A stretch of DNA of 64,000 bases from a virus. The stretch is taken from the IMG/VR virus record IMGVR_UViG_3300018877_000005, positions 1,523 to 65,522 of that record. One strand, given 5' to 3'. The position numbers and the translations under genes were made by a program. Each line of letters opens with the position of its first letter. Position 1 is the first letter of the stretch. This document shows positions 1 to 60,422 of this stretch, one piece after another. The notes under the pieces are model-generated. The model was given only the letters and a program-made list of their open reading frames with translations, searched no databases and was not told the DNA's origin.

Positions 1-490
1 CGTAAATGCCGACGAAGGAATCCCTTAGCTTGTCGCGCCATTCCTCCAGAGAATAGGACTCCGATTGATAGATAGCTATGAACTCATCGGGCTCTAGGCC
101 GGAGTCCTCAACTTCATTCTCTAGGAACTCCACAAAGGCGGCAATGTCGTCCAGACTCGGGTGTTCGCCAAACGATGAAGGGAGTCCTTCGTAGTCGTGT
201 ATCGCCCATTCTTCGGCAGACGGATAGGAGTCGCCGTCCGGCTTCATATCCTGCCCGCAATGCTCGCAAACTGGAGTCTTGTTCTCGGCATAATCCGACA
301 ACGTGACAATGCGAGACTCGCCGCAATCGTCACAATCGAACTTCTGCCGTCGGACGTTCGGATATGGGGAATCCTTCAGAATGTCATTAATTGCCGTTTG
401 CATCTCGGCAACATCTGAGCTTGCATCGATCCAACGTCCATAGAGGACTCCATTGTTGTATGAGGCAAGGCAAGCAACGTATAGGCGCAT
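1..490 (-). CDS. ardA: ArdA-family antirestriction protein (DNA mimic), 3'-truncated by the window edge, with a CxxC..CxxC insertion
   Basis: Hand translation, not in the ORF track: MRLYVACLASYNNGVLYGRWIDA...SPYPNV...AEEWAIHDYEG; very acidic; GGAGTC RBS at 497-502. Confidence 0.85.
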   Translation of the reverse strand, partial: MRLYVACLASYNNGVLYGRWIDASSDVAEMQTAINDILKDSPYPNVRRQKFDCDDCGESRIVTLSDYAENKTPVCEHCGQDMKPDGDSYPSAEEWAIHDYEGLPSSFGEHPSLDDIAAFVEFLENEVEDSGLEPDEFIAIYQSESYSLEEWRDKLRDSFVGIY

Positions 491-502
491 TGGTCGGACT
501 CC

Positions 503-706
503 TTAGTTCTCAATCACAGATGCAAGGGAGTCCGTCACAGACTCCAGATAGGACATAGCGTCATCCATGTTTGAGATAGCCTCTTGCATGGACTCGCCAC
601 GTTCGCCGTCCTGAAGGGACTCGGGCATGTTGTCGAAGGACTCTTGTTCCTCGTCACGGATGGACTCAAGGTCGGACGCGATAGCCTCTAAACGGGCTTT
701 GTTCAT
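503..706 (-). CDS. Small acidic hypothetical phage protein
   Basis: 67 aa ORF, D/E-rich, GGAGTC RBS, directly after a promoter/operator. Confidence 0.75.
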   Translation of the reverse strand: MNKARLEAIASDLESIRDEEQESFDNMPESLQDGERGESMQEAISNMDDAMSYLESVTDSLASVIEN

Positions 707-736
707 TGGATCGACTCCAGTTGGATCAGATGAGTC

Positions 737-766
737 CTTATAGGACCATTAGTCCTATGCCGTCAA
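737..766 (-). promoter_or_regulatory. Sigma70-like promoter TTGACG-N18-TATAAG with palindromic operator ATAGGAC-N5-GTCCTAT (740-758) in the spacer
   Basis: Read directly; same architecture recurs at 2579, 3747 and 18867. Confidence 0.65.
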
Positions 767-792
767 CGTGGAAAAAGCGGCATAGAAGCCAC

Positions 793-1182
793 TTAATCGT
801 CGTCGCCGTATGCGGATGGAATCCGTTCGCCGCTATGGCAGCATAATAACTCGGAGTCCTCATAGTTAATTTCGCAACCTATAACTCTCCATCCTGAACG
901 GGTATCGTTGGATCGGATAGCGTCGGCAATCTGCCGAAACTCTTTACGGGCAGACTCGAAGCTCATAGCCTCTCCATCTGCCATTATGAGGAAAAGAGGA
1001 TAGAAGCCGGGCCAAGTCTTATCCCCTGCCCTAAGAGTTGCCTTCAGTTGCGCAACCGTATCGATCTTTCGGAAGTGATACCGATAGGCGGATCGGAGCG
1101 GCGGCAACGTACCCCATCCCTGGACTCGGGTATCGTATAGGTCGCCGTCATTAGCAATGAACATATGAGCGGGAAGCGGCAT
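793..1182 (-). CDS. Hypothetical protein (129 aa)
   Basis: Start reassigned to the ATG at 1182 behind a GGAGTC RBS. Confidence 0.7.
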   Translation of the reverse strand: MPLPAHMFIANDGDLYDTRVQGWGTLPPLRSAYRYHFRKIDTVAQLKATLRAGDKTWPGFYPLFLIMADGEAMSFESARKEFRQIADAIRSNDTRSGWRVIGCEINYEDSELLCCHSGERIPSAYGDDD

Positions 1183-1447
1183 AGCTGGACTCCAGATCGG
1201 ACAGGTTACGGGCTTAGAGCTTCGAGTTAAGAGAGGTCGCAATGTTGCTCCATGCTTCCTCTTCAGTGTCCCAATATTCCCTGCCGTCCCTGCCGGTTAT
1301 CGCGGCCTCATCCTCATTGGGTTCAATTATGTAAAAGCCGCAATCATGTCGCTTAACCTTAAAACCAAGGGCGACCATGGGCGCAATATCGGAATGGGTA
1401 TAGTGTGTCATAGCTGGACTCCAGATCGGACAGGTTGCGGGCTTAGA
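1180..1447. repeat. 39-bp direct repeat (1180-1218 and 1409-1447, one mismatch) forming two consecutive gene junctions (stop-spacer-RBS-ATG)
   Basis: catagctggactccagatcggacaggtt(a/g)cgggcttaga occurs twice. Confidence 0.9.
1214..1411 (-). CDS. Hypothetical protein (65 aa)
   Basis: ATG at 1411 with GGAGTC RBS; bounded by the 39-bp repeats. Confidence 0.65.
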   Translation of the reverse strand: MTHYTHSDIAPMVALGFKVKRHDCGFYIIEPNEDEAAITGRDGREYWDTEEEAWSNIATSLNSKL

Positions 1448-2309
1448 TGTTTGCGCCTTCGTTGAATGCGGCTTGAAGCTCTTTGGACGGATAGAAGCCG
1501 GGCAACCATTCCGACACATATTCGCCGCTCTTTAGCTTCTCCATCTCGCCTCGTGCCTCGCGGATGTCTTCGAGCATGGACTCCACCTTGGACCTGACCA
1601 AGCCGCAAAGAGTCCCGTATTTGCTTTGATCGTTGTTCAATGCCGACCTAGCAACTCGAAGCTCTTTGATTGCGGCAATGATGGAGCGGCGAGTCGTCTT
1701 CACCTCTTCGGACAATTGACCGTAACGATTGCCAGCTTGCCATGCGGCTTGGTAAGCCCGCTCTTGTTCACCTACCCGTTCGGCAATGGAGTCGGCACGT
1801 CTAGCGGCTTCTCGCGCTCCATCGTGATCTTTTGCGGAATCTGTCCAACTCCAATAACGATACTTCACATTCCATTCTGGCGCTTCACCCTCAAAGATGG
1901 TCCCGAAGTCTAGGCAAACAGGTCCATTAGAGTCCGCCTTGCCGTTGTTCCAATCCTCATACCCGGCAATGAAAAGCGGCTTGCGTCCACGTCCGGCAAT
2001 CTGGAAAACGACTCCTCTCACTACTTCATTTTGATCGTTGTCCACAAACCATCCTGTATGATCCATGCGGACAAGTTCATGGGCATAGCCAACAAAGCGG
2101 AGCCCGGCAGAACGTGGGTTCTCGATCCAGCGCATATGCTTTGAACCGTAAGCCTCAAACGGCTTACCGCTAGAATAACCCGTATAGATCAAGCTCGAAG
2201 GGTATTTGTCCCGATTGTTCGCAACGTCCAGGCGGGCGGCATGTAGCGCGAGAGTCGCAGGCGCTCCTAATAAACGATGATACTGAAAGCAGGTCTTAAG
2301 GTCGGACAT
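1443..2309 (-). CDS. Hypothetical protein (288 aa) with C-terminal coiled coil
   Basis: Long ORF, ATG at 2309 with GGAGTC RBS. Confidence 0.75.
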   Translation of the reverse strand: MSDLKTCFQYHRLLGAPATLALHAARLDVANNRDKYPSSLIYTGYSSGKPFEAYGSKHMRWIENPRSAGLRFVGYAHELVRMDHTGWFVDNDQNEVVRGVVFQIAGRGRKPLFIAGYEDWNNGKADSNGPVCLDFGTIFEGEAPEWNVKYRYWSWTDSAKDHDGAREAARRADSIAERVGEQERAYQAAWQAGNRYGQLSEEVKTTRRSIIAAIKELRVARSALNNDQSKYGTLCGLVRSKVESMLEDIREARGEMEKLKSGEYVSEWLPGFYPSKELQAAFNEGANI

Positions 2310-2354
2310 ATTCGAGACTCCTCTTTGGTGAATGTGCACGGGAATGGTGACGGC

Positions 2355-2555
2355 TTAGACAAGCCGAATTGAGTCGATTGCGTTCAGAGCTTCCTCAATC
2401 AAAGCCTCTTTCTCTCCATCGTCGGGAACAATGATGAAGGGTTTAGCGGCTTGTCGCCTATCGGGCTTGAACTCCACACGGGACGGCTTGCCTGCGTGGG
2501 TTAGATACTGCGCAACGGCATAGGCGAGACCATGGGAGGAATAACGCTGAATCAT
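2355..2555 (-). CDS. Hypothetical protein (66 aa)
   Basis: ATG at 2555 with GGAGTC RBS, downstream of an operator/promoter. Confidence 0.6.
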   Translation of the reverse strand: MIQRYSSHGLAYAVAQYLTHAGKPSRVEFKPDRRQAAKPFIIVPDDGEKEALIEEALNAIDSIRLV

Positions 2556-2575
2556 GTTGTGACTCCTTATGCGCC

Positions 2576-2605
2576 TATTTAGGTCCAATGGTCCTAGTTG
2601 GTCAA
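2576..2605 (-). promoter_or_regulatory. Promoter TTGACC-N18-TAAATA with operator variant TTAGGTC-CAATG-GTCCTAG (2579-2597)
   Basis: 19-mer identical to 17503-17521. Confidence 0.55.
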
Positions 2606-2811
2606 GCCGGTTTTCCACCGTTAGGCCGTTTTCCGAGATAGCCCGCAAACCTGCCGTAAACATGTGGGCGCTTCTCTATGAGTTTCCGCAACTCGTCATC
2701 CGTAATCGGGTTCTGACCATAGAGGGAGTCGAGCATTGCCCGGTTTAGTTCGCCGCTCTTACGGTCGGCAGAATAGAACATCTGAGCTTGTGACATCCGA
2801 GGCTTGGACAT
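2602..2811 (-). CDS. Hypothetical protein (69 aa)
   Basis: ATG overlaps the upstream TAA; GGAGTC RBS. Confidence 0.65.
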   Translation of the reverse strand: MSKPRMSQAQMFYSADRKSGELNRAMLDSLYGQNPITDDELRKLIEKRPHVYGRFAGYLGKRPNGGKPA

Positions 2812-3158
2812 TAGTGCGACTCCTCTTCGGACCAAGTGAATCGAAACCATGCATATGCGGACTCGCCGCTATCATCGTCCGCCGCTCTATCGAGTCCGCG
2901 CTCGAACGTGCCGAACGGATGAGCCCGTTTGAATAGATCGATGATTGCGGCTTTTACCTCATCGTCCGAGATGGACTCGGGCAGTTTATCGCCATAGTTG
3001 CGTGCTTCATCAATGAGGGAGTCCCTAACCTGATGGTTGCGGCTTGAACGATCCACGGCAACGCCTAGCAACATCTCGGAGTCACCGTTGCAATGGTCCT
3101 GAACGTAGCACGGCAGGCAAGTGTCAACGTGCGAGATGGAGAGTTCATACTTTGCCAT
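2811..3158 (-). CDS. Hypothetical protein (115 aa)
   Basis: ORF track; GGAGTC RBS. Confidence 0.7.
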   Translation of the reverse strand: MAKYELSISHVDTCLPCYVQDHCNGDSEMLLGVAVDRSSRNHQVRDSLIDEARNYGDKLPESISDDEVKAAIIDLFKRAHPFGTFERGLDRAADDDSGESAYAWFRFTWSEEESH

Positions 3159-3171
3159 AGCGGCGGACTCC

Positions 3172-3303
3172 TTATGGGGCGAACTTCAGAGTTAAGAGGA
3201 AAGCGGCGACACATGCGGCGGATGTCAAAGCCGGGTGATAATGAGCGGCATAGAACAAACCTGCCGCCGCATGTCCGAGAACGAAAAGAGCGGTCTCAAC
3301 CAT
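3172..3303 (-). CDS. Small hydrophobic membrane peptide (43 aa)
   Basis: MVETALFVLGHAAAGLFYAAHYHPALTSAACVAAFLLTLKFAP; GGAGTC RBS. Confidence 0.55.
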   Translation of the reverse strand: MVETALFVLGHAAAGLFYAAHYHPALTSAACVAAFLLTLKFAP

Positions 3304-3595
3304 TGCTGGACTCCTCGTCATCGTCCTCTTCGTCGTCGGGATAGTCGGGGTCCTCTTGCGCCTCCATCTCCGCCATTTGAGCGGCAAGCCCGGCAAAGTG
3401 GCTCATGTCCTCAACATCACATTCAAGCCGGGCGAGATGGAGTAAGTTTGTAATCAGGTCCTTAATCCGAGTCTGTTTGTCCTCAACATCCTCAGACGCA
3501 AAGCAGATAGAGGTGAAAGTGTCCAAAGCCTCATCTGCCATAGCGGCGCGGTCGGAATTGGTACGGACTCCACCGTCAAGAAGGAACAATGCCAT
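3296..3595 (-). CDS. Hypothetical acidic protein (99 aa)
   Basis: ORF track; poly-D/E tail; GGAGTC RBS. Confidence 0.7.
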   Translation of the reverse strand: MALFLLDGGVRTNSDRAAMADEALDTFTSICFASEDVEDKQTRIKDLITNLLHLARLECDVEDMSHFAGLAAQMAEMEAQEDPDYPDDEEDDDEESSNG

Positions 3596-3609
3596 TAGAT
3601 CGACTCCAG

Positions 3610-3717
3610 TTAGGCGATTAGACCAAGGGCGAGAATCCCGGCAGGGAACCCGACCATGAAAAGGGCGAAACCGGCCGCCTTAGCGGCAACGGATAATAAG
3701 AGCTTTGCAAGGGACAT
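3610..3717 (-). CDS. Small hydrophobic membrane peptide (35 aa), first gene of the early arm
   Basis: Hand translation MSLAKLLLSVAAKAAGFALFMVGFPAGILALGLIA; GGAGTC RBS at 3723-3728. Confidence 0.55.
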   Translation of the reverse strand: MSLAKLLLSVAAKAAGFALFMVGFPAGILALGLIA

Positions 3718-3743
3718 CGGACGACTCCGTTAGAGGTGAAAGG

Positions 3744-3771
3744 GACATAGGACCAAAGGTCCTATAGGCAA
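3744..3771 (-). promoter_or_regulatory. Early promoter TTGCCT-N16-TATGTC with operator ATAGGAC-CAAAG-GTCCTAT (3747-3765)
   Basis: Palindrome read directly; heads the leftward early arm. Confidence 0.6.
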
Positions 3772-3781
3772 CCAATACCGA

Positions 3782-4303
3782 GTCCCATGCCTCGCGTCAA
3801 CACTACGTTGACATATCACGGGAATGGGGCGAACGAAAGAGTCAACGATCCATTAAGCCCGCGACAGGTCGGCAAGCCCATGGTCGCTCGAAGCTCAATC
3901 CGTAGAGCCCGGCAAGGTCGGAGTCCTATGGGACAGGATTCACCTCCACCATGGGACGGGACTAGCGGCGGACAAGCCCGGCAGGTCGGCACGGTGGAGC
4001 GGCGGACGGTTGCTTGTGCCGCGTCTCGGCAGGTCGGCAAGGGCGCTAAACCCTCAATCGGAATCCGTGAATCCAATTCCCCTAATCCGTTCGGCAGGTC
4101 TGAAGGTCGGCAGGTCTACCCGTAATCATGGGACGGCATGGGACAAGCGGCGGATGGTCGGCAGGTCTGAAGGTAATGGGACAACATGGGACAATGGGCA
4201 GATGGATGGAGCGGCAACAGGTCGGCACGGGACAACATGGGACAGATTGAGACGACATCGGACCATCTGGAACGTGGTGAGACGGCTTGGCACGGCATGG
4301 GAC
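3782..4303. repeat. Array of ATGGGAC (8 forward, 1 inverted) and GGCAGGTC (5 copies) left of the candidate cos
   Basis: ATGGGAC at 3928, 3951, 4128, 4138, 4176, 4186, 4237, 4297, inverted at 3782; GGCAGGTC at 3980, 4028, 4093, 4109, 4160. Confidence 0.85.
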
Positions 4304-4346
4304 AGAAGGCGCTCCGGGTCCTTCCTGCGGCGGCGATCCACCGGGG

Positions 4347-4358
4347 GGCGCGCGGAGC
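4347..4358 (+). other. Candidate cohesive-end site cosN (GGCGCGCGGAGC)
   Basis: 10/12 identity to the phage Chi 12-nt end as I recall it (GGTGCGCAGAGC); lies in the 1.1-kb gene-free gap between two repeat arrays; TerL is lambda gpA-type. Confidence 0.55.
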
Positions 4359-4415
4359 GCCCTCTCCGACAGTTTTCAACTTTTTTTCCGAAATGGTTTA
4401 GGGGTGCCTCAGACA

Positions 4416-4688
4416 AACTTTCGTCAACGGGTGCTGCCACAAGTGCTGCCACAAGTGCTGCCACAAGTTCAGAAGCTAAGTGGTTAAAATATATATATAT
4501 ATTCTCTCTATACTAACTTTCGTCAGCACTTGTTACGGGGGGTGGCGCAGGGAGAATCTTACCCCCTCGTGGCTCCCTTCGTGGTCAGGTGTCACAAGTG
4601 CTGCCACAAGTTCGTGAAACCGTTGCTGCGTAAGGGTTTGAGGCGTCATCACTTGTGGCACTTGTGGCAGCACCCGTTGACGGAAGTT
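4416..4688. repeat. GTGCTGCCACAA x3 tandem (4431-4466), 4th copy at 4598, inverted copy at 4662; 31-bp inverted repeat (4416-4446 / 4658-4688) around a TA-dinucleotide run
   Basis: Read directly; IR arms differ at one position. Confidence 0.9.
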
Positions 4689-4841
4689 CACCTCGAAAGG
4701 GTGTCGGTACTGCCGACGCAATCGATGACCTCGTTAGTACCGAGGGCGTCATTTGAACGGACATCCTTTTGAGATGTTCGGTTTTTCCGAATAACTGCGC
4801 AGGACCCCGAGTCCTTGTCCCATGTTGTCTCACGCGCAGAT

Positions 4842-4875
4842 AAAGAAAAACCCCGCCGAAGCGGGGCTCTTTTTC
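4842..4875 (-). terminator. Rho-independent terminator after the primase (ccccgc-TTCG-gcgggg on the minus strand, U tract; possibly bidirectional)
   Basis: Hairpin 4851-4866 flanked by A and T tracts. Confidence 0.8.
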
Positions 4876-7183
4876 ATCGCTTAGTCGAGACATAGGCCGG
4901 TCGCTTCCGACCTCCCGTTCCGACCTCCACGAACTTGATCGCTCCGTCGCGCTTGAGCCGATTAATCACCTCATCCGTCTCGCGGGTGCTCATGCGCTTG
5001 AACGGACGGCAGCGACGGGAGATTTCTCGAATGGTGAGACCCTTCTCGCCGGCACGGTTGATAAGTTCGGCCACGGCGTCACACACGTCCTCCATGTCCG
5101 TCTTTCCAAGGTTCGCCGCAAAGTCCTCGATCATCTGCCCGTGATAATAGCTCACATAGTCCCACGCCCATTTGAGATGCTTCATGCGGATGGTGCGGGA
5201 GCCGCAGCTTACCGCCACGATGAGAGCGAGGCGCATCGCGATCTCGCGGGTACGGATATGGAGCGAGGCCATCCCGTTTTCCTTGTCCATCGCGTTCATC
5301 CGCTTAATCAGGAGCTTCTCATATTCCCGAAGCTCGCGAAGGCACTCCTCATCGAACGGCACGAGCACGGGTTCCGGCGCATGGTTGGAGTCGATGATAA
5401 TCTGGTCATCGTCCTCCTCCCCGCCACCGTGCGCGTTGGCGTGTTCCTTGATCCACTTAATCAGATCACGCGGAACCTCCTCCCTCGCCTCCTCCTCGCG
5501 GCTCAACTGGCGTCCGAGGTTGCTCCTGACGATGATGAAGCGGTTGAGGAAGCCCGAGGCCACTTCCTTACCGGACAGGGCCTCATGGAAGGTCTCAGGC
5601 GTCGTCATGCCGAGCATCGTCATGGCCGGGCGGACAACCTTGCGGTTCTTGAGGAACTCGATCTGTTCCTTCGTCATCTTCGCCATCGAATAGCCGGTCG
5701 GTCGCATGGTGCCGTGCAGACGCCCGAAGGCTTCCATGATGAACTTTTGCGTCTCACGCTTGAGGCTACTTGAGGAGTCCCGCGTCGTGGCGAGATAGAT
5801 TCCGAACTCGTCAACTATGTGGATGGAGATCGGCTCCTCGACAAGCGCGGACAGGATACCCGCGCCCGAGGTGAACTCGCTAGGTGCGATACGCTTTCCG
5901 AGACCGGAAGCCTCAAGGATTTCCTCGATCACCGTCTTGGAGTGCTCTTTGCCGGCTCCGGTTGGTGCCACGTTCAGGAAATACAGGGTTGCGAAGTTTC
6001 GCTTATTGGTTTTCCAGTTGCGCCCGAGTACGGTCGATCCGAGAGCGAGCGCGGCTTGCACGGCGAATTGCGGCTGCGGCTTCTCGGCTGTAGCGTTGTA
6101 GTAGTCAACGGCAAGCTGGAGCACGCCGGGAACGCGCAAAAGGTGATCCGGTACGTCGATCTTGGGTGGCTTGGGTGCCTCGCCCCCATCCTCATCCTCG
6201 AAATCGTCAGCGGTCGCCGTGATCTCGGGCTCGTCATCCTCGATCTCGTCCTCGAACTCGTCCTCGAACTCGTCCGCGTAGCCCTCATACTCACGCTGCC
6301 GGCGTGCTTCCCTCGCAGCCTTGAACACGGTCGCCATGCGAACCGGCTTGTCGGGGTTGCCCCTATCGAACGATTTCCACTGTTGCCACTGGATTGCGCG
6401 GTCGAATTTGGCGGATTGCTTGGAATAGTCGCACCAAACCTCGAATGCTTCCTTCTCACCGTCAAATTCATGGTGAAGCGCCATGCCGAGGCGAATCCAC
6501 CCCTCGCGATCATCGCACCAATAGTCGAAATCGAGGTCTTTGATGGCCGCTTCCGCCTCCTCATAGGTGCATCCGAGCTTCTCGGTTCCGTAACCCCCCT
6601 CCTCGGACGAAGGGTTGATGAGTTCCTCGATCAGACTGGCGTTGATATGCGGGAAGCCATCCACCGGATCGACGCCCTCGATCCACTTATAGGGGCGTTC
6701 CGTGACGGGATGGATCGACGGGGGGGCCACGACCTGCTTGCCGGTGCCGAAAATCTCGATCTCCCATGCGTAGGAGCCCGTACCCGGCATCTTGTCCTCG
6801 CTCTTGGCGATTTTCTTCCCTTGGAACGGCTTATCTGTCACGAAATAGAAGTGGCGAGAGGCTCCGCCCGATCCCGATTGCACGGATGGGAGAGCCCACA
6901 CGTCCACACCATCGAACAGACGCTCAAGCTCCTCGATAGCCTCGCCCTCGCGACCCTCATCGCGAATGTCCATATCGATTGCGTGGAGATACATGCCGTC
7001 GATCTCGGACCATTCACCGAGTCGAATGCCGAGGTTCATCCCATCGCGATACTTCGCTTTGAGTTGTTCAAAGGTGAGCCTGGGCTTTCTCGACCAATCG
7101 TCACCGATAGGTCGCTTTGATTTCTCGTGCAGGAGAATGACGGAAACGCCCATCCTGACGAGGTGTTTGACTTCTGCGAGCAC
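4874..7183 (-). CDS. Primase-helicase (N-terminal Prim-Pol/AEP, PriCT-2-like middle, C-terminal DUF3987-like P-loop helicase)
   Basis: HAIDMD primase motif, SGSGGASRHFYF, REGWIRLGMALH, Walker A APTGAGKE. Confidence 0.85.
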   Translation of the reverse strand: MLAEVKHLVRMGVSVILLHEKSKRPIGDDWSRKPRLTFEQLKAKYRDGMNLGIRLGEWSEIDGMYLHAIDMDIRDEGREGEAIEELERLFDGVDVWALPSVQSGSGGASRHFYFVTDKPFQGKKIAKSEDKMPGTGSYAWEIEIFGTGKQVVAPPSIHPVTERPYKWIEGVDPVDGFPHINASLIEELINPSSEEGGYGTEKLGCTYEEAEAAIKDLDFDYWCDDREGWIRLGMALHHEFDGEKEAFEVWCDYSKQSAKFDRAIQWQQWKSFDRGNPDKPVRMATVFKAAREARRQREYEGYADEFEDEFEDEIEDDEPEITATADDFEDEDGGEAPKPPKIDVPDHLLRVPGVLQLAVDYYNATAEKPQPQFAVQAALALGSTVLGRNWKTNKRNFATLYFLNVAPTGAGKEHSKTVIEEILEASGLGKRIAPSEFTSGAGILSALVEEPISIHIVDEFGIYLATTRDSSSSLKRETQKFIMEAFGRLHGTMRPTGYSMAKMTKEQIEFLKNRKVVRPAMTMLGMTTPETFHEALSGKEVASGFLNRFIIVRSNLGRQLSREEEAREEVPRDLIKWIKEHANAHGGGEEDDDQIIIDSNHAPEPVLVPFDEECLRELREYEKLLIKRMNAMDKENGMASLHIRTREIAMRLALIVAVSCGSRTIRMKHLKWAWDYVSYYHGQMIEDFAANLGKTDMEDVCDAVAELINRAGEKGLTIREISRRCRPFKRMSTRETDEVINRLKRDGAIKFVEVGTGGRKRPAYVSTKR

Positions 7184-54842: not shown

Positions 54843-55847
54843 TCACGCGACAAGTGACCGCAGGATGGCCGCGTAACCGCCTTCCGCCTCCTCGTGGTCA
54901 AGGTCAAATCTACGTTTGATGTCAGCAATGTAGTCGGTTTCGCGCTCGACCAAGATTGCATTCCTCCCTTCATCCAGCGCGGCTTGTCCTGTCGTACCCG
55001 ATCCTGAGAACGGATCGAGAACAAAACCATACTTGGGAGTCACCAGTCTGACAAGATGTCGCAGAAGTGCGACGGGCTTAACGGTTGCGTGATCGGAGCC
55101 GGCGCGGTCCTCTTTCGTGGCCTTGCCGTGGTGGAAGATATTGGCCTCCAAGGGAAAGCTCGCGAAATACTCCAGGGGCACCCGTGCTCCGACCTCGGGC
55201 GAACCATCTGTGAGTAAGTTCGACGGCCAGCGGTCGCCGGGACCGCGACAGGCATCGACGTTCATCGCCCCTGCGCCATGCTTCAGGACGTTCGCGATCC
55301 CGGTCTTTTCCGAGAACGGCTTCTGAGCGACGTAGATCGGCTCCAGGGCCGGTTTCAGGGTTTGGGTGGAATGATACCATCCCTCCCACTCTTCCGTGCC
55401 GACCGGGCTCTTTCCCGGCTTGTGGATCGCGTGCGCCTTCGGGAAGCCGGTATGATAGGTCCAGGCGATGAACGGGTGCATCTTGAAGCCCGCCGCTTCC
55501 ATGGCGACGGCTTGGTGATGCCCGGTCGAGGCGTGCGAGAAGGCGAGGCAGTAGCCGCCCGGCAGGAGCAGGTCATAGACCCGCCGCCAGAACGTCGGAT
55601 CATGCGCAATCTTGTAACCGTTGTCGCCGCCGTCCCATGTGCGCTCCATGAAGCCTCGGGATTGCCGGGCGAACCGTCCGTCGGAGCCCGCCTTCGCGGC
55701 CTTCGAGCCCTCTTTGCCGAACCGCTTGACGATGGATTCGAGGTAGTAGGGCGGGTCTGTGACGCACGAATGAACCTGCACGCCCTCGGCGGCAAGCTCC
55801 ACGAGGACATCGTTCGCGTCCCCCTCACATAAACGGACGGTCGCCAT
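54843..55847 (-). CDS. DNA methyltransferase, N6-adenine/N4-cytosine beta class
   Basis: Motif IV VTDPPY before motif I VLDPFSGSGTT; HATVKP. Confidence 0.9.
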   Translation of the reverse strand: MATVRLCEGDANDVLVELAAEGVQVHSCVTDPPYYLESIVKRFGKEGSKAAKAGSDGRFARQSRGFMERTWDGGDNGYKIAHDPTFWRRVYDLLLPGGYCLAFSHASTGHHQAVAMEAAGFKMHPFIAWTYHTGFPKAHAIHKPGKSPVGTEEWEGWYHSTQTLKPALEPIYVAQKPFSEKTGIANVLKHGAGAMNVDACRGPGDRWPSNLLTDGSPEVGARVPLEYFASFPLEANIFHHGKATKEDRAGSDHATVKPVALLRHLVRLVTPKYGFVLDPFSGSGTTGQAALDEGRNAILVERETDYIADIKRRFDLDHEEAEGGYAAILRSLVA

Positions 55848-58925: not shown

Positions 58926-60422
58926 ATGAGTCTTTACGGCGTTCTGCGTAGCGGCGTCTCTGGCATGAATGCGCAATCGAATAAGCTAGGGACCGTGGCC
59001 GATAACATTCAGAACTCAAGCACGAACGGCTACAAGCGTGCCTCGACGGAGTTCTCATCCCTCATCCTGCCGTCGGGCGAGGGGAGCTATAACTCGGGCT
59101 CCGTGACGAGTCGGGTCCGCTATACAATATCCGACCAAGGGCCGATTGCTTACACGACATCCTCGTCAGACTTGGCGATCTCGGGCAACGGCTTCTTTGT
59201 GGTCACTGACGCAAGCGGCTCACCCTACCTGACCCGCGCCGGAAACTTCGTCAAAGACGGGCGGACGGGCGACCTTGTCAATGCTGCCGGCTTTACCCTG
59301 ATGGGCTACAAGTTAGGGGAGGGGGCCGTGAACCCCGCTCTGAACAGCCTCGACGGTGCCGTGCCGGTCAACATGGCGTCTTTCGCTATGCAGGCGACCG
59401 CCTCGACGCAGGGGACGTTCACGGGCAATCTGCCGTATGGTGCCCCTATCGCGGTGGCGGTAGGGGTGGGCACCCCCGCCGATCCGGCAGCAACCCCACC
59501 TGTGTCTGGAAGCGTGCTTTTCCCGCCACCCGCTATGCAGAGCGGGGAGAAGGTCAAGTTCTCGGTTGGAGGTGGACCGGAGCAAACGTTTGTCATCACG
59601 ACACAAAAGACCGTTGCCGATCTCGCAGACGACATTAACGCCGCCGTAGCTGCCGGCACTCTCACCGGAGTCAGTGCATCGACAACAGCCGATGGTGAAT
59701 TGGTACTGACCTCGACCGACCCCCTCAACAATACGGACGTAACGGGGACCTACACGTCCGTAACCAAAGCCTCGTCGCTTCAGGTTTACGATAAGGTTGG
59801 CAACCCGATCAAGATCGATATTGCCCTGTCCAAGATCAGCGCGACACAATGGAGTATCACCGTTCTCAACGGCTCCGATCCCACGTCGTCGCTGACCGGC
59901 ACGACAACAATGATGTTGAACTTCGATGCCGACGGACAGCTTACCGGCCCATCGACGCTGACGTTTGACATCCCTGGCGGCGAACCGTTCACGCTCGATA
60001 TGGGCGGTACTACGCACCTCGCGGGCGACTACAGCGTCACCGGCACGTCGAACGGCAATGCCCCCTCGGCGGTGAAGGATGTCGAGTTCGGAGCCGACGG
60101 GACGGTCTACGCGGTCTATGAGGATGGCACCCGAGTCGGCGCTTATCGGATTCCGCTTGCGAACGTCGCGAGCCCTGACAACCTCAACCCTCGTGCCGGG
60201 AATGTCTATGAGCCGACCGCAAGCTCAGGCGGCTACCAAGTCGGCTTTCCCGAGGAGTCGGGCTTCGGCTCTATCGCCTCGGGAGCCCTGGAAGGATCGA
60301 ACGTCGATATTGGTACGGAGCTAACGGCCATGATCGAAGCTCAGACCAGCTACACGGCCAACTCGAAGGTGTTCCAGACGGGTTCCGAGTTGCTCGATGT
60401 CCTTATGAACCTGAAGCGTTAA
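58926..60422 (+). CDS. flgE: Flagellar hook protein FlgE, rhizobial type, with an internal extra domain
   Basis: GVSGMNAQSNKLGTVADNIQNSSTNGYK, DLAISGNGFFVV, YLTRAGNF, LEGSNVDIGTELTAMIEAQTSYTANSKVFQT; AGGGGG RBS. Confidence 0.95.
   Translation: MSLYGVLRSGVSGMNAQSNKLGTVADNIQNSSTNGYKRASTEFSSLILPSGEGSYNSGSVTSRVRYTISDQGPIAYTTSSSDLAISGNGFFVVTDASGSPYLTRAGNFVKDGRTGDLVNAAGFTLMGYKLGEGAVNPALNSLDGAVPVNMASFAMQATASTQGTFTGNLPYGAPIAVAVGVGTPADPAATPPVSGSVLFPPPAMQSGEKVKFSVGGGPEQTFVITTQKTVADLADDINAAVAAGTLTGVSASTTADGELVLTSTDPLNNTDVTGTYTSVTKASSLQVYDKVGNPIKIDIALSKISATQWSITVLNGSDPTSSLTGTTTMMLNFDADGQLTGPSTLTFDIPGGEPFTLDMGGTTHLAGDYSVTGTSNGNAPSAVKDVEFGADGTVYAVYEDGTRVGAYRIPLANVASPDNLNPRAGNVYEPTASSGGYQVGFPEESGFGSIASGALEGSNVDIGTELTAMIEAQTSYTANSKVFQTGSELLDVLMNLKR

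Follow-up and report, generated by a model that had tools for sequence, protein, structure and literature searches.

A dense, evenly spaced island of GA(G/C)TC in a putative early operon of a soil phage and its relatives

Why would a phage crowd one five-base word into a single operon, right through the genes that it has to encode there? The question is raised by the left arm of a soil phage known from IMG/VR virus record IMGVR_UViG_3300018877_000005, a contig of 67,072 bp of which bases 1523-65522 were analysed as one stretch of 64,000 nucleotides (hereafter the window; positions are those of the window unless given as genome positions). In this arm GAGTC and GACTC, the two strands of one pentamer and together written GASTC, are packed into an island:

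57..3925, strand-neutral: GA(G/C)TC island, 48 sites in the window and 67 in 5.6 kb when its extension to the left is included

An exact count of this interval gives 27 GACTC and 21 GAGTC, with 6 GAATC and no GATTC, which is the figure of about 48 that the initial annotation had reached by hand; the interval 8-12 kb, for which it gave 4-5 sites, has 4. Outside the island the window carries about 1.7 GASTC per kb, with 0-6 in each of its remaining 2-kb bins. The island extends beyond the left edge of the window to about genome base 100, at the contig start, and over genome positions 1-5600, 8% of the genome, there are 67 sites (12 per kb) against 11.5 expected from composition, an observed to expected ratio (O/E) of 5.8. 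The other 61.5 kb has 107 against 133 expected (O/E 0.8), and the words with a central A or T, GAATC and GATTC (together GAWTC), have composition O/E values of 1.2 in the arm and 0.8 in the rest. When every strand-collapsed 5-mer was scanned in sliding 4-kb windows across the whole genome, GACTC/GAGTC stood out far above all other words as a local anomaly (51 sites where 7.9 are expected, log10P -23.9), the runners-up being overlapping words of the same pentamer. The arm has a G+C content of 53% against 60% for the genome and its codon usage also differs.

The enrichment is not a consequence of the proteins that the arm encodes. In shuffles of the 12 arm genes that kept all proteins and the arm's own codon usage, the 47 sites of the coding sequence compare with 20.1 +/- 3.2 (maximum 31 in 3000 shuffles), thus the excess persists (z 8.4) under the amino-acid-preserving shuffle that had been named beforehand as its refuting test. 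Shuffling codon order within the arm genes gives an expectation of only 13.0. The GAWTC words, which had been described as not clearly enriched, are even depleted in the arm, with 9 against a synonymous expectation of 16.2 (z -2.3), and are likewise below expectation in the relative L006 described below. Neither the replication nor the structural genes of this phage depart from neutrality for GASTC (z 0.1-0.6), and any excess outside the arm is weak (70 sites where synonymous shuffles expect 59, z 1.8). The density of GASTC in the arm is under selection, this selection is on the DNA and independent of protein sequence, and in this phage and L006 it is the word with a central G:C pair that is specifically preferred.

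How the word is fitted into genes can be seen from the codons. In 30 of the 47 coding sites it is spelled in frame as GAG or GAC followed by TCN, and 30 of the 34 Asp/Glu-Ser dipeptides of the arm use GA(C/G)-TCN where codon usage predicts about half. These dipeptides are themselves over-used 1.7-fold, and the reverse order, Ser-Asp/Glu, is not; the word is thus placed where it costs least, and the choice of amino acids is pushed as well. All 6 sites in the 204-nt gene of a 67-amino-acid acidic protein are Glu/Asp-Ser codon pairs. The word is also carried by the ribosome-binding sites (RBS), as GGAGTC serves in 11 of the 12 arm genes, whereas of 81 crude gene calls elsewhere in the genome a single one has GAGTC just upstream of its start. 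The statement that every RBS of the arm is GGAGTC is right for all 11 genes within the window and fails for the twelfth, to the left of it.

There is no sign that one strand is favoured. On the sense strand of coding sequence GAGTC occurs 24 times and GACTC 23 times (35 and 29 overall), and the flanking preference is symmetric and palindromic, with G at -1 and C at +1, the commonest extended sites being GGAGTCC (19) and GGAGTCG (11). The sites are also more even than chance, with a coefficient of variation (CV) of spacing of 0.73 against 0.98 +/- 0.12 for random placement (P 0.004) and with 3 gaps below 20 bp where 13.9 are expected. The same trend in spacing is found in L006 (P 0.02, 0.05), and in the relative L012 it is not significant. 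The equality of orientation and the even spacing indicate that selection acts on double-stranded DNA and on the density of sites. Two other identities for the word were dropped: a half-site of the TAGGAC operator described below, GGAC within GGACTC, is missing from half of the sites, the enrichment being of GASTC, whilst of the Mom-type motif S-A-S-N-Y no other member is enriched.

Is the island peculiar to this phage? Relatives were collected by profile searches and exact-protein look-ups, further arms being found through the profile of a 288-amino-acid arm protein; a single-protein scan of viral contigs found no close relatives. The relative that parallels the phage most strongly is L006, a syntenic ENA contig of 69 kb, whose arm carries 62 GASTC in 6.9 kb (O/E 4.2 against 0.7 in the rest of the locus; synonymous-shuffle z 11.0) at unchanged G+C, with GGAGTC as the RBS of 9 of the 11 genes in its island. 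At the end of a 616-kb bacterial contig lies L012 (also L058; provirus G001), in which the arm O/E is 3.7 for GASTC and 2.7 for GAWTC, the corresponding values for the remainder of the locus being 0.3 and 0.7, and in L059 and L060 the S- and W-centred words are both enriched about threefold. A prophage of Manganibacter manganicus JH-7 (L081) has 30 GASTC in 4 kb with GACTC as its top 5-mer, and milder islands of 3-6 sites per kb are found in G003, G004, a prophage of Amorphus orientalis and Rhizobium phage RHph_X2_30. In every whole record examined the GASTC maximum is this arm; there was no GASTC island in Loktanella phage pCB2051-A or in the terminal repeat of phiCbK. The check in related phages that the initial annotation had proposed therefore finds islands in equivalent arms, at mostly different positions.

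The ArdA antirestriction genes of three of the phages have 11, 7 and 2 sites (16, 10 and 3 per kb) of which only 1-2 positions are shared, and the genes for the 288-amino-acid protein have 7, 10 and 2 sites with 0-1 shared. The orthologous proteins are 33-49% identical, and where a position is shared G and C interchange in it. The gene content of the arm is mosaic and no arm gene tracks the strength of the island. Density thus goes with the phage lineage and with this operon and is not set by particular proteins, and the turnover of sites with density kept in divergent relatives shows that it is the density of the word that is selected.

Some further observations were made on the relatives. 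The Prim-Pol gene adjoining the arm has homologues at 40-57% identity, of which L004, L005, L007 and L009 were set aside as arm relatives, being in other elements or at contig ends without an arm. The matches in sequencing runs, biocrust runs included, are all to assembled contigs, and no RNA run is listed among them. Rhizosphere and soil metagenome contigs (runs X3, X4) match parts of window 600-6000 at about 85-97% identity with replaced segments, which suggests that the arm is mosaic even among close relatives. In the Amorphus prophage (L008:13230-16525) one leader, AAGTAACTTTCGGAG, stands before at least 6 arm genes, and L006 has a recurring leader of its own, AGTTTCAACTG, thus each lineage seems to have its own repeated pre-gene cassette. 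Other apparent word islands in distant loci were rejected as tandem repeats; at L026:10040-10295, for example, a 6-bp tandem repeat ATGGCN of about 40 copies inside a gene mimics a word island in k-mer scans. Against plasmids ArdA gave a single distant match, in Legionella, and the Atlas search gave no usable match for the 288-amino-acid protein.

What then is the operon in which the word is concentrated? All genes of the arm are on the minus strand, about 12 in number, small and often acidic, and apart from ArdA they belong to PHROG families without known function. The arm reads as follows:

1..490 (N-terminal 163 codons; genome 1344-2012), minus strand: ArdA antirestriction gene (Pfam ArdA 1.1e-31, phrog_2059), with 11 GASTC and a GGAGTC RBS
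503..706, minus strand: 67-amino-acid acidic protein, phrog_4068 by PHROG match
741..757, unstranded: probable operator TAGGACCATTAGTCCTA, inside a promoter-like element TTGACG-18-TATAAG (minus strand) with a GASTC just 3' of the -10
793..1182, minus strand: gene of 129 amino acids, phrog_18452, with a GGAGTC RBS
1214..1411, minus strand: gene of 65 amino acids with a GGAGTC RBS
1443..2309, minus strand: 288-amino-acid protein, phrog_8188, with homologues in the phiCbK terminal repeat
2355-2555, 2602-2811, 2811-3158, 3172-3303, 3296-3595 and 3610-3717, minus strand: six more small genes, each with GGAGTC 5-7 nt before its ATG
2580..2596, unstranded: probable operator TAGGTCCAATGGTCCTA, preceded by a -35-like hexamer TTGACC (minus strand)
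3748..3800, minus strand: main promoter-like region of the arm, with -35 TTGACG at 3795-3800 and a -10-like TATTGG at 3772-3777
3748-3764, unstranded: probable operator TAGGACCAAAGGTCCTA, within the main promoter-like region

The 288-amino-acid protein is the only arm gene common to all relatives, and the 65- and 129-amino-acid genes have an identical 23-nt leader that includes the GGAGTC RBS. Three promoter-like elements with a TTGAC(G/C) -35 occur in the arm, each overlapping the palindrome TAGGAC-N5-GTCCTA. This palindrome, allowing one mismatch, has six copies in the genome (741-757, 2580-2596, 3748-3764, 17504-17520 and 18868-18884, and genome 66580), three of which are in the arm and two near a plasmid-maintenance and immunity region; they are probably the operator set of a repressor. 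The region at 3748..3800 is promoter-like and would be the main promoter of the arm, although a consensus promoter scanner made no call in it. It has a GASTC at 3780-3784, in its 17-nt spacer, and two of the three promoter-like elements have a site either in the spacer or just after the -10, which is near chance at one site per 80 bp. GASTC also occurs in the promoter region generally and past the last clear gene, and the boundaries of the island coincide with the operon. With three operators, promoter-like elements and ArdA, the arm looks like an operator-controlled anti-defence operon of early type, where "early" is taken from the layout. Pfam and PHROG searches detected no DNA-binding domain in the arm proteins.

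Next to the arm comes an iteron-rich non-coding stretch, followed by the Prim-Pol gene. The iterons at 3990-4880 (genome ~5500-6400) are ATGGGACA-type repeats with four copies of TGCCACAAGTGC, and a pair of 31-nt inverted arms (genome 5938-5968, 6180-6210) lies in the same stretch, which probably serves as a replication origin or control region. Elsewhere the genome encodes a Cas4-like nuclease, a polymerase, an SNF2 helicase, ParA, a beta-class methylase and FlgE. The last is a full-length flagellar hook protein (58926-60422) that matches five flagellar Pfam domains, and FlgE is also present in the Amorphus relative (L008:18652-20376). At the left end of the contig an 88-nt direct repeat occupies L001:2-89 and 220-307, the two copies being 218 bp apart, and it recurs in the final ~66 bases at the other end. 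As the overlap of the ends belongs to this repeat family it is no proof of circularity or of terminal repeats. The initial annotation had taken the arm for the first-entering DNA, which was an assumption that no result on the contigs backs, their ends overlapping through the repeat.

The word itself points towards the alphaproteobacterial methylase CcrM, whose target is GANTC and which does not discriminate the central base, and the island had indeed been called CcrM-type. If the whole target set were being collected all four words should be enriched, as they are in L012, L059 and L060; in this phage they are not (GASTC O/E 5.8, GAWTC 1.2), and in it and L006 only the G:C-centred half is selected. 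As those relatives enrich the whole set, a link to the GANTC family is plausible. Enzymes of the CcrM family with altered central-base specificity have been documented (PMC8919816). The regulator GcrA, which in Caulobacter prefers YGAKTCK and ranks GGAGTCT 30th of 32 (PMC4647560), is a poor match, as only about 11 of the 67 island sites fit YGAGTCK, although this consensus is that of Caulobacter and may not be that of the real host. No GcrA gene was found in this phage, G001, G003 or G004. The equivalent arm of RHph_X2_30, a related Casjensviridae phage, includes a gene (L080:7562-8206) whose annotation is that of a GcrA-like cell-cycle regulator.

The phage does encode one methylase of its own:

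54843..55847, minus strand: DNA methyltransferase, beta-class (PF01555, DPPY), the only one in the phage

The initial annotation had noted that it is of the same class as CcrM. The class is indeed beta, but the match to CcrM is limited to the S-adenosylmethionine-binding end and has no bearing on GANTC: it scores 45 bits against the CcrM equivalog NF050803 (cut-off 830) over residues 245-315 only, and the match to PDB 6PBD covers the same binding end alone. G001, which has a strong island and is 75% complete, has no PF01555 methylase.

Candidate hosts do have the machinery. Full-length CcrM homologues are present in Microvirga makkahensis (610 bits) and Amorphus orientalis (603 bits), and Amorphus also has GcrA; Microvirga is tentative as a host, as none of 76 genomes of the genus has a homologue of the 288-amino-acid family. 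In a 400-kb sample of Microvirga genome GASTC is under-represented, at 0.73 per kb with a maximum of 10 per 4 kb, thus the arm is about 16 times denser in it than candidate host DNA. The phage enriches GAGTC rather than avoiding it as the restriction site of PleI/MlyI/BstNBI-type enzymes, and the corresponding family RE_AlwI (PF09491) had no match in 41 genomes of the genus Microvirga, with control genomes equally silent. In a survey of alphaproteobacterial phages CtrA-box clusters were found but no positional clustering of GcrA sites (PMC9437464).

Taken together, the findings may be explained by methylation: the island would be a cis-acting cluster of GANTC-family adenine methylation sites, the state of which is read so that the early operon is timed or licensed, and we would put the probability of this at roughly 0.35. 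The GA(G/C)TC island would then be a selected array of a double-stranded pentamer, written at maximal density and minimal coding cost across one repressor-controlled early operon of ArdA and about 11 small, fast-changing genes. With some 130 methylatable adenines the methylation state of 5.6 kb would become a readable property: virion DNA and resting prophage would be fully methylated, replication from the neighbouring iteron region would leave the sites hemi- or unmethylated, and a host or phage factor reading this state could set the expression or accessibility of the early genes. The methylation of the sites, their writers and readers and the effect on expression are what we infer here; in favour of methylation are the host machinery and the relatives in which all four GANTC words are enriched.

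Several points weigh against this. The centre is strictly G:C and GAWTC is depleted, whereas CcrM ignores the central base, and the G(-1)/C(+1) flanks are among the poorest for Caulobacter GcrA, whose sites show no positional clustering in the alphaproteobacterial phages surveyed (PMC9437464). The phage methylase has no CcrM-like recognition region and G001, as far as its 75% completeness goes, has no PF01555 enzyme at all. The sites inside promoters are not significant at one per 80 bp; one to four promoter sites would moreover suffice for a switch, and an operon-wide even array fits coating or titration at least as well.

The even spacing, the operon-wide extent and the restriction of the central base instead favour an array of binding sites, one protein per ~80 bp, for a dedicated GA(G/C)TC reader of phage or host unrelated to CcrM and GcrA, which might coat and protect the operon, stop a defence or silencing complex from translocating along it, or act as a decoy for a defence sensor. 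The symmetric G/C flanks are as for a dimeric reader, the scarcity of gaps below 20 bp (3 against 13.9) with the low spacing CV in two phages is expected of independent non-overlapping sites, and both the variation of density by phage lineage instead of by gene family (the 16, 10 and 3 sites per kb of ArdA) and the anti-defence context would fit. But the searches yielded no candidate reader, with no arm gene tracking the strength of the island and no arm protein having a DNA-binding domain, the relatives that enrich all GANTC words point back to the methylation family, and a tight coat would get in the way of expression of the very operon that it covers. We regard such an array as a possible explanation, only a little less probable than the methylation-site island; it is compatible with a methylation-site island and does not exclude it.

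Less probable, and in our opinion unlikely, is a sponge acting in trans, in which replicated phage or plasmid-prophage sites titrate host CcrM or another GANTC binder and so disturb chromosome methylation and the cell cycle. The candidate hosts have CcrM, even spacing would maximise independent binding, and at the 0.73 GASTC per kb of the host sample about 100 phage copies would rival all host sites. A single-copy island, however, adds less than 2% to them, a sponge has no need to be confined to one operon when the rest of the genome shows a weak excess at most, and the central-base restriction is left unexplained.

We would give equally poor odds to a signal at the level of RNA, whereby the Shine-Dalgarno (SD) word GGAGUC and the internal GASUC are read by an endoribonuclease or RNA-binding factor, or SD and anti-SD pair (GGAGUC-GACUCC). 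This would account for GGAGTC as the RBS of the arm genes here and in L006 and almost nowhere else, and for the island ending with the operon. A folding z below -2 is reached by 17% of 150-nt arm windows and by 4% in a control, yet the mean folding z of arm mRNA is -0.53 against -0.23 and -0.40 in controls, which is not clear excess structure. An RNA reader does not predict that the reverse-complement word is equally enriched on the sense strand with palindromic flanks, nor sites in the promoter region and past the last clear gene, and the conserved leader of the Amorphus relative differs and has no GAGTC.

That the island is a by-product without function, of the lower G+C and differing codon usage, of acidic Asp/Glu-Ser-rich proteins, of duplicated RBS cassettes (two leaders are duplicated) or of DNA from a donor that does not avoid GANTC (several relatives' arms merely lack the avoidance of the rest, O/E 1.0-1.7 against 0.3), is very improbable when composition, codon order and synonymous codons predict 11.5, 13 and 20 sites against 67 in the island and 47 in coding sequence, L006 gives the same result at unchanged G+C, and site turnover at kept density and non-random spacing contradict it.

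Methylation-site clusters are known as small non-coding switches, whilst here the word spans 5.6 kb of genes at the expense of codon and even amino-acid choice, sits in an anti-restriction operon and is upheld by turnover among relatives whose proteins are 33-49% identical. Density kept despite such divergence and coding cost suggests a strong selective agent on early phage DNA in the Hyphomicrobiales. It may be, although we would not wager on it, that operon-wide GA(G/C)TC islands are an unrecognised cis device of temperate alphaproteobacterial phages, a dense even array read by a new factor that is either a reader of (hemi)methylation, the missing counterpart of SeqA, or a protein specific for GASTC by which the anti-defence operon is shielded or timed. 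To our knowledge no hemimethylation reader is known in Alphaproteobacteria. Identifying the reader could reveal how these phages time or protect their early genes, whether Alphaproteobacteria read clustered (hemi)methylated sites and why the specificity of the CcrM family varies at the central base. The question can be tested, since Manganibacter manganicus JH-7, which carries a prophage of this kind, is in culture.

How does the island compare with known systems? The initial annotation knew of no description of such an array and none was found in the literature, but parts of it are familiar. The nearest are the GANTC promoters and clusters of Alphaproteobacteria controlled by CcrM and GcrA, such as ctrA P1, ftsZ, mipZ and Cori (PMC4647560, PMC3973325). 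The island shares with them a pentamer of the GANTC family, CcrM in the candidate hosts and GcrA in Amorphus, sites in or next to what look like core promoter elements, and a host DNA in which GANTC is otherwise scarce; it differs in that those elements have 1-5 non-coding sites, whereas the island has 67 through 5.6 kb of coding sequence, is G:C-centred only, has flanks that are not YGAKTCK and is only presumed to be methylated. A second parallel is with the CtrA-box clusters in the early regions of alphaproteobacterial phages that bind the flagellum or pilus (PMC9437464), where again a short host-type DNA word is concentrated in one early region in phages of the same host class. The terminal repeat of phiCbK (L010:1-4000) has 33 copies of the CtrA half-site TTAAC/GTTAA against 3.2 expected, which agrees with these published clusters. 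CtrA boxes are, however, intergenic, 16 bp and few, and the word of the island is 5 bp and mostly intragenic; in the same survey the motifs of GcrA, SciP and DnaA did not cluster (PMC9437464).

Beyond the Alphaproteobacteria, clusters of Dam GATC sites are read by their methylation state at oriC of E. coli by SeqA, at pac of phage P1, in IS10 and in pap. The logic proposed for the island is the same, in that replication is timed in cis by whether the sites are fully methylated, hemimethylated or unmethylated, but the Dam clusters span 100-250 bp of non-coding DNA. Cyanobacterial HIP1, Chi and the DNA uptake sequences resemble it in being short words carried through genes far above expectation at the level of DNA; they are genome-wide, Chi and uptake words also being biased in orientation, whereas the island is one operon, neutral in orientation (35 against 29) and surrounded by expected frequencies. 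Nor does it behave as a HIP-type word tied to a methyltransferase, being confined to 8% of the genome and strong in G001 (75% complete) without PF01555. RegB of phage T4 cuts GGAG in early mRNAs and reads one RNA strand, and here too early genes share a special SD word which later genes are without, but in the island the complementary word is equally enriched (24 against 23 in the coding sense strand). The island is therefore best regarded as kin to clusters of methylation sites or host-regulator sites, unusual in that it covers a whole operon, runs through coding sequence and discriminates the central base.

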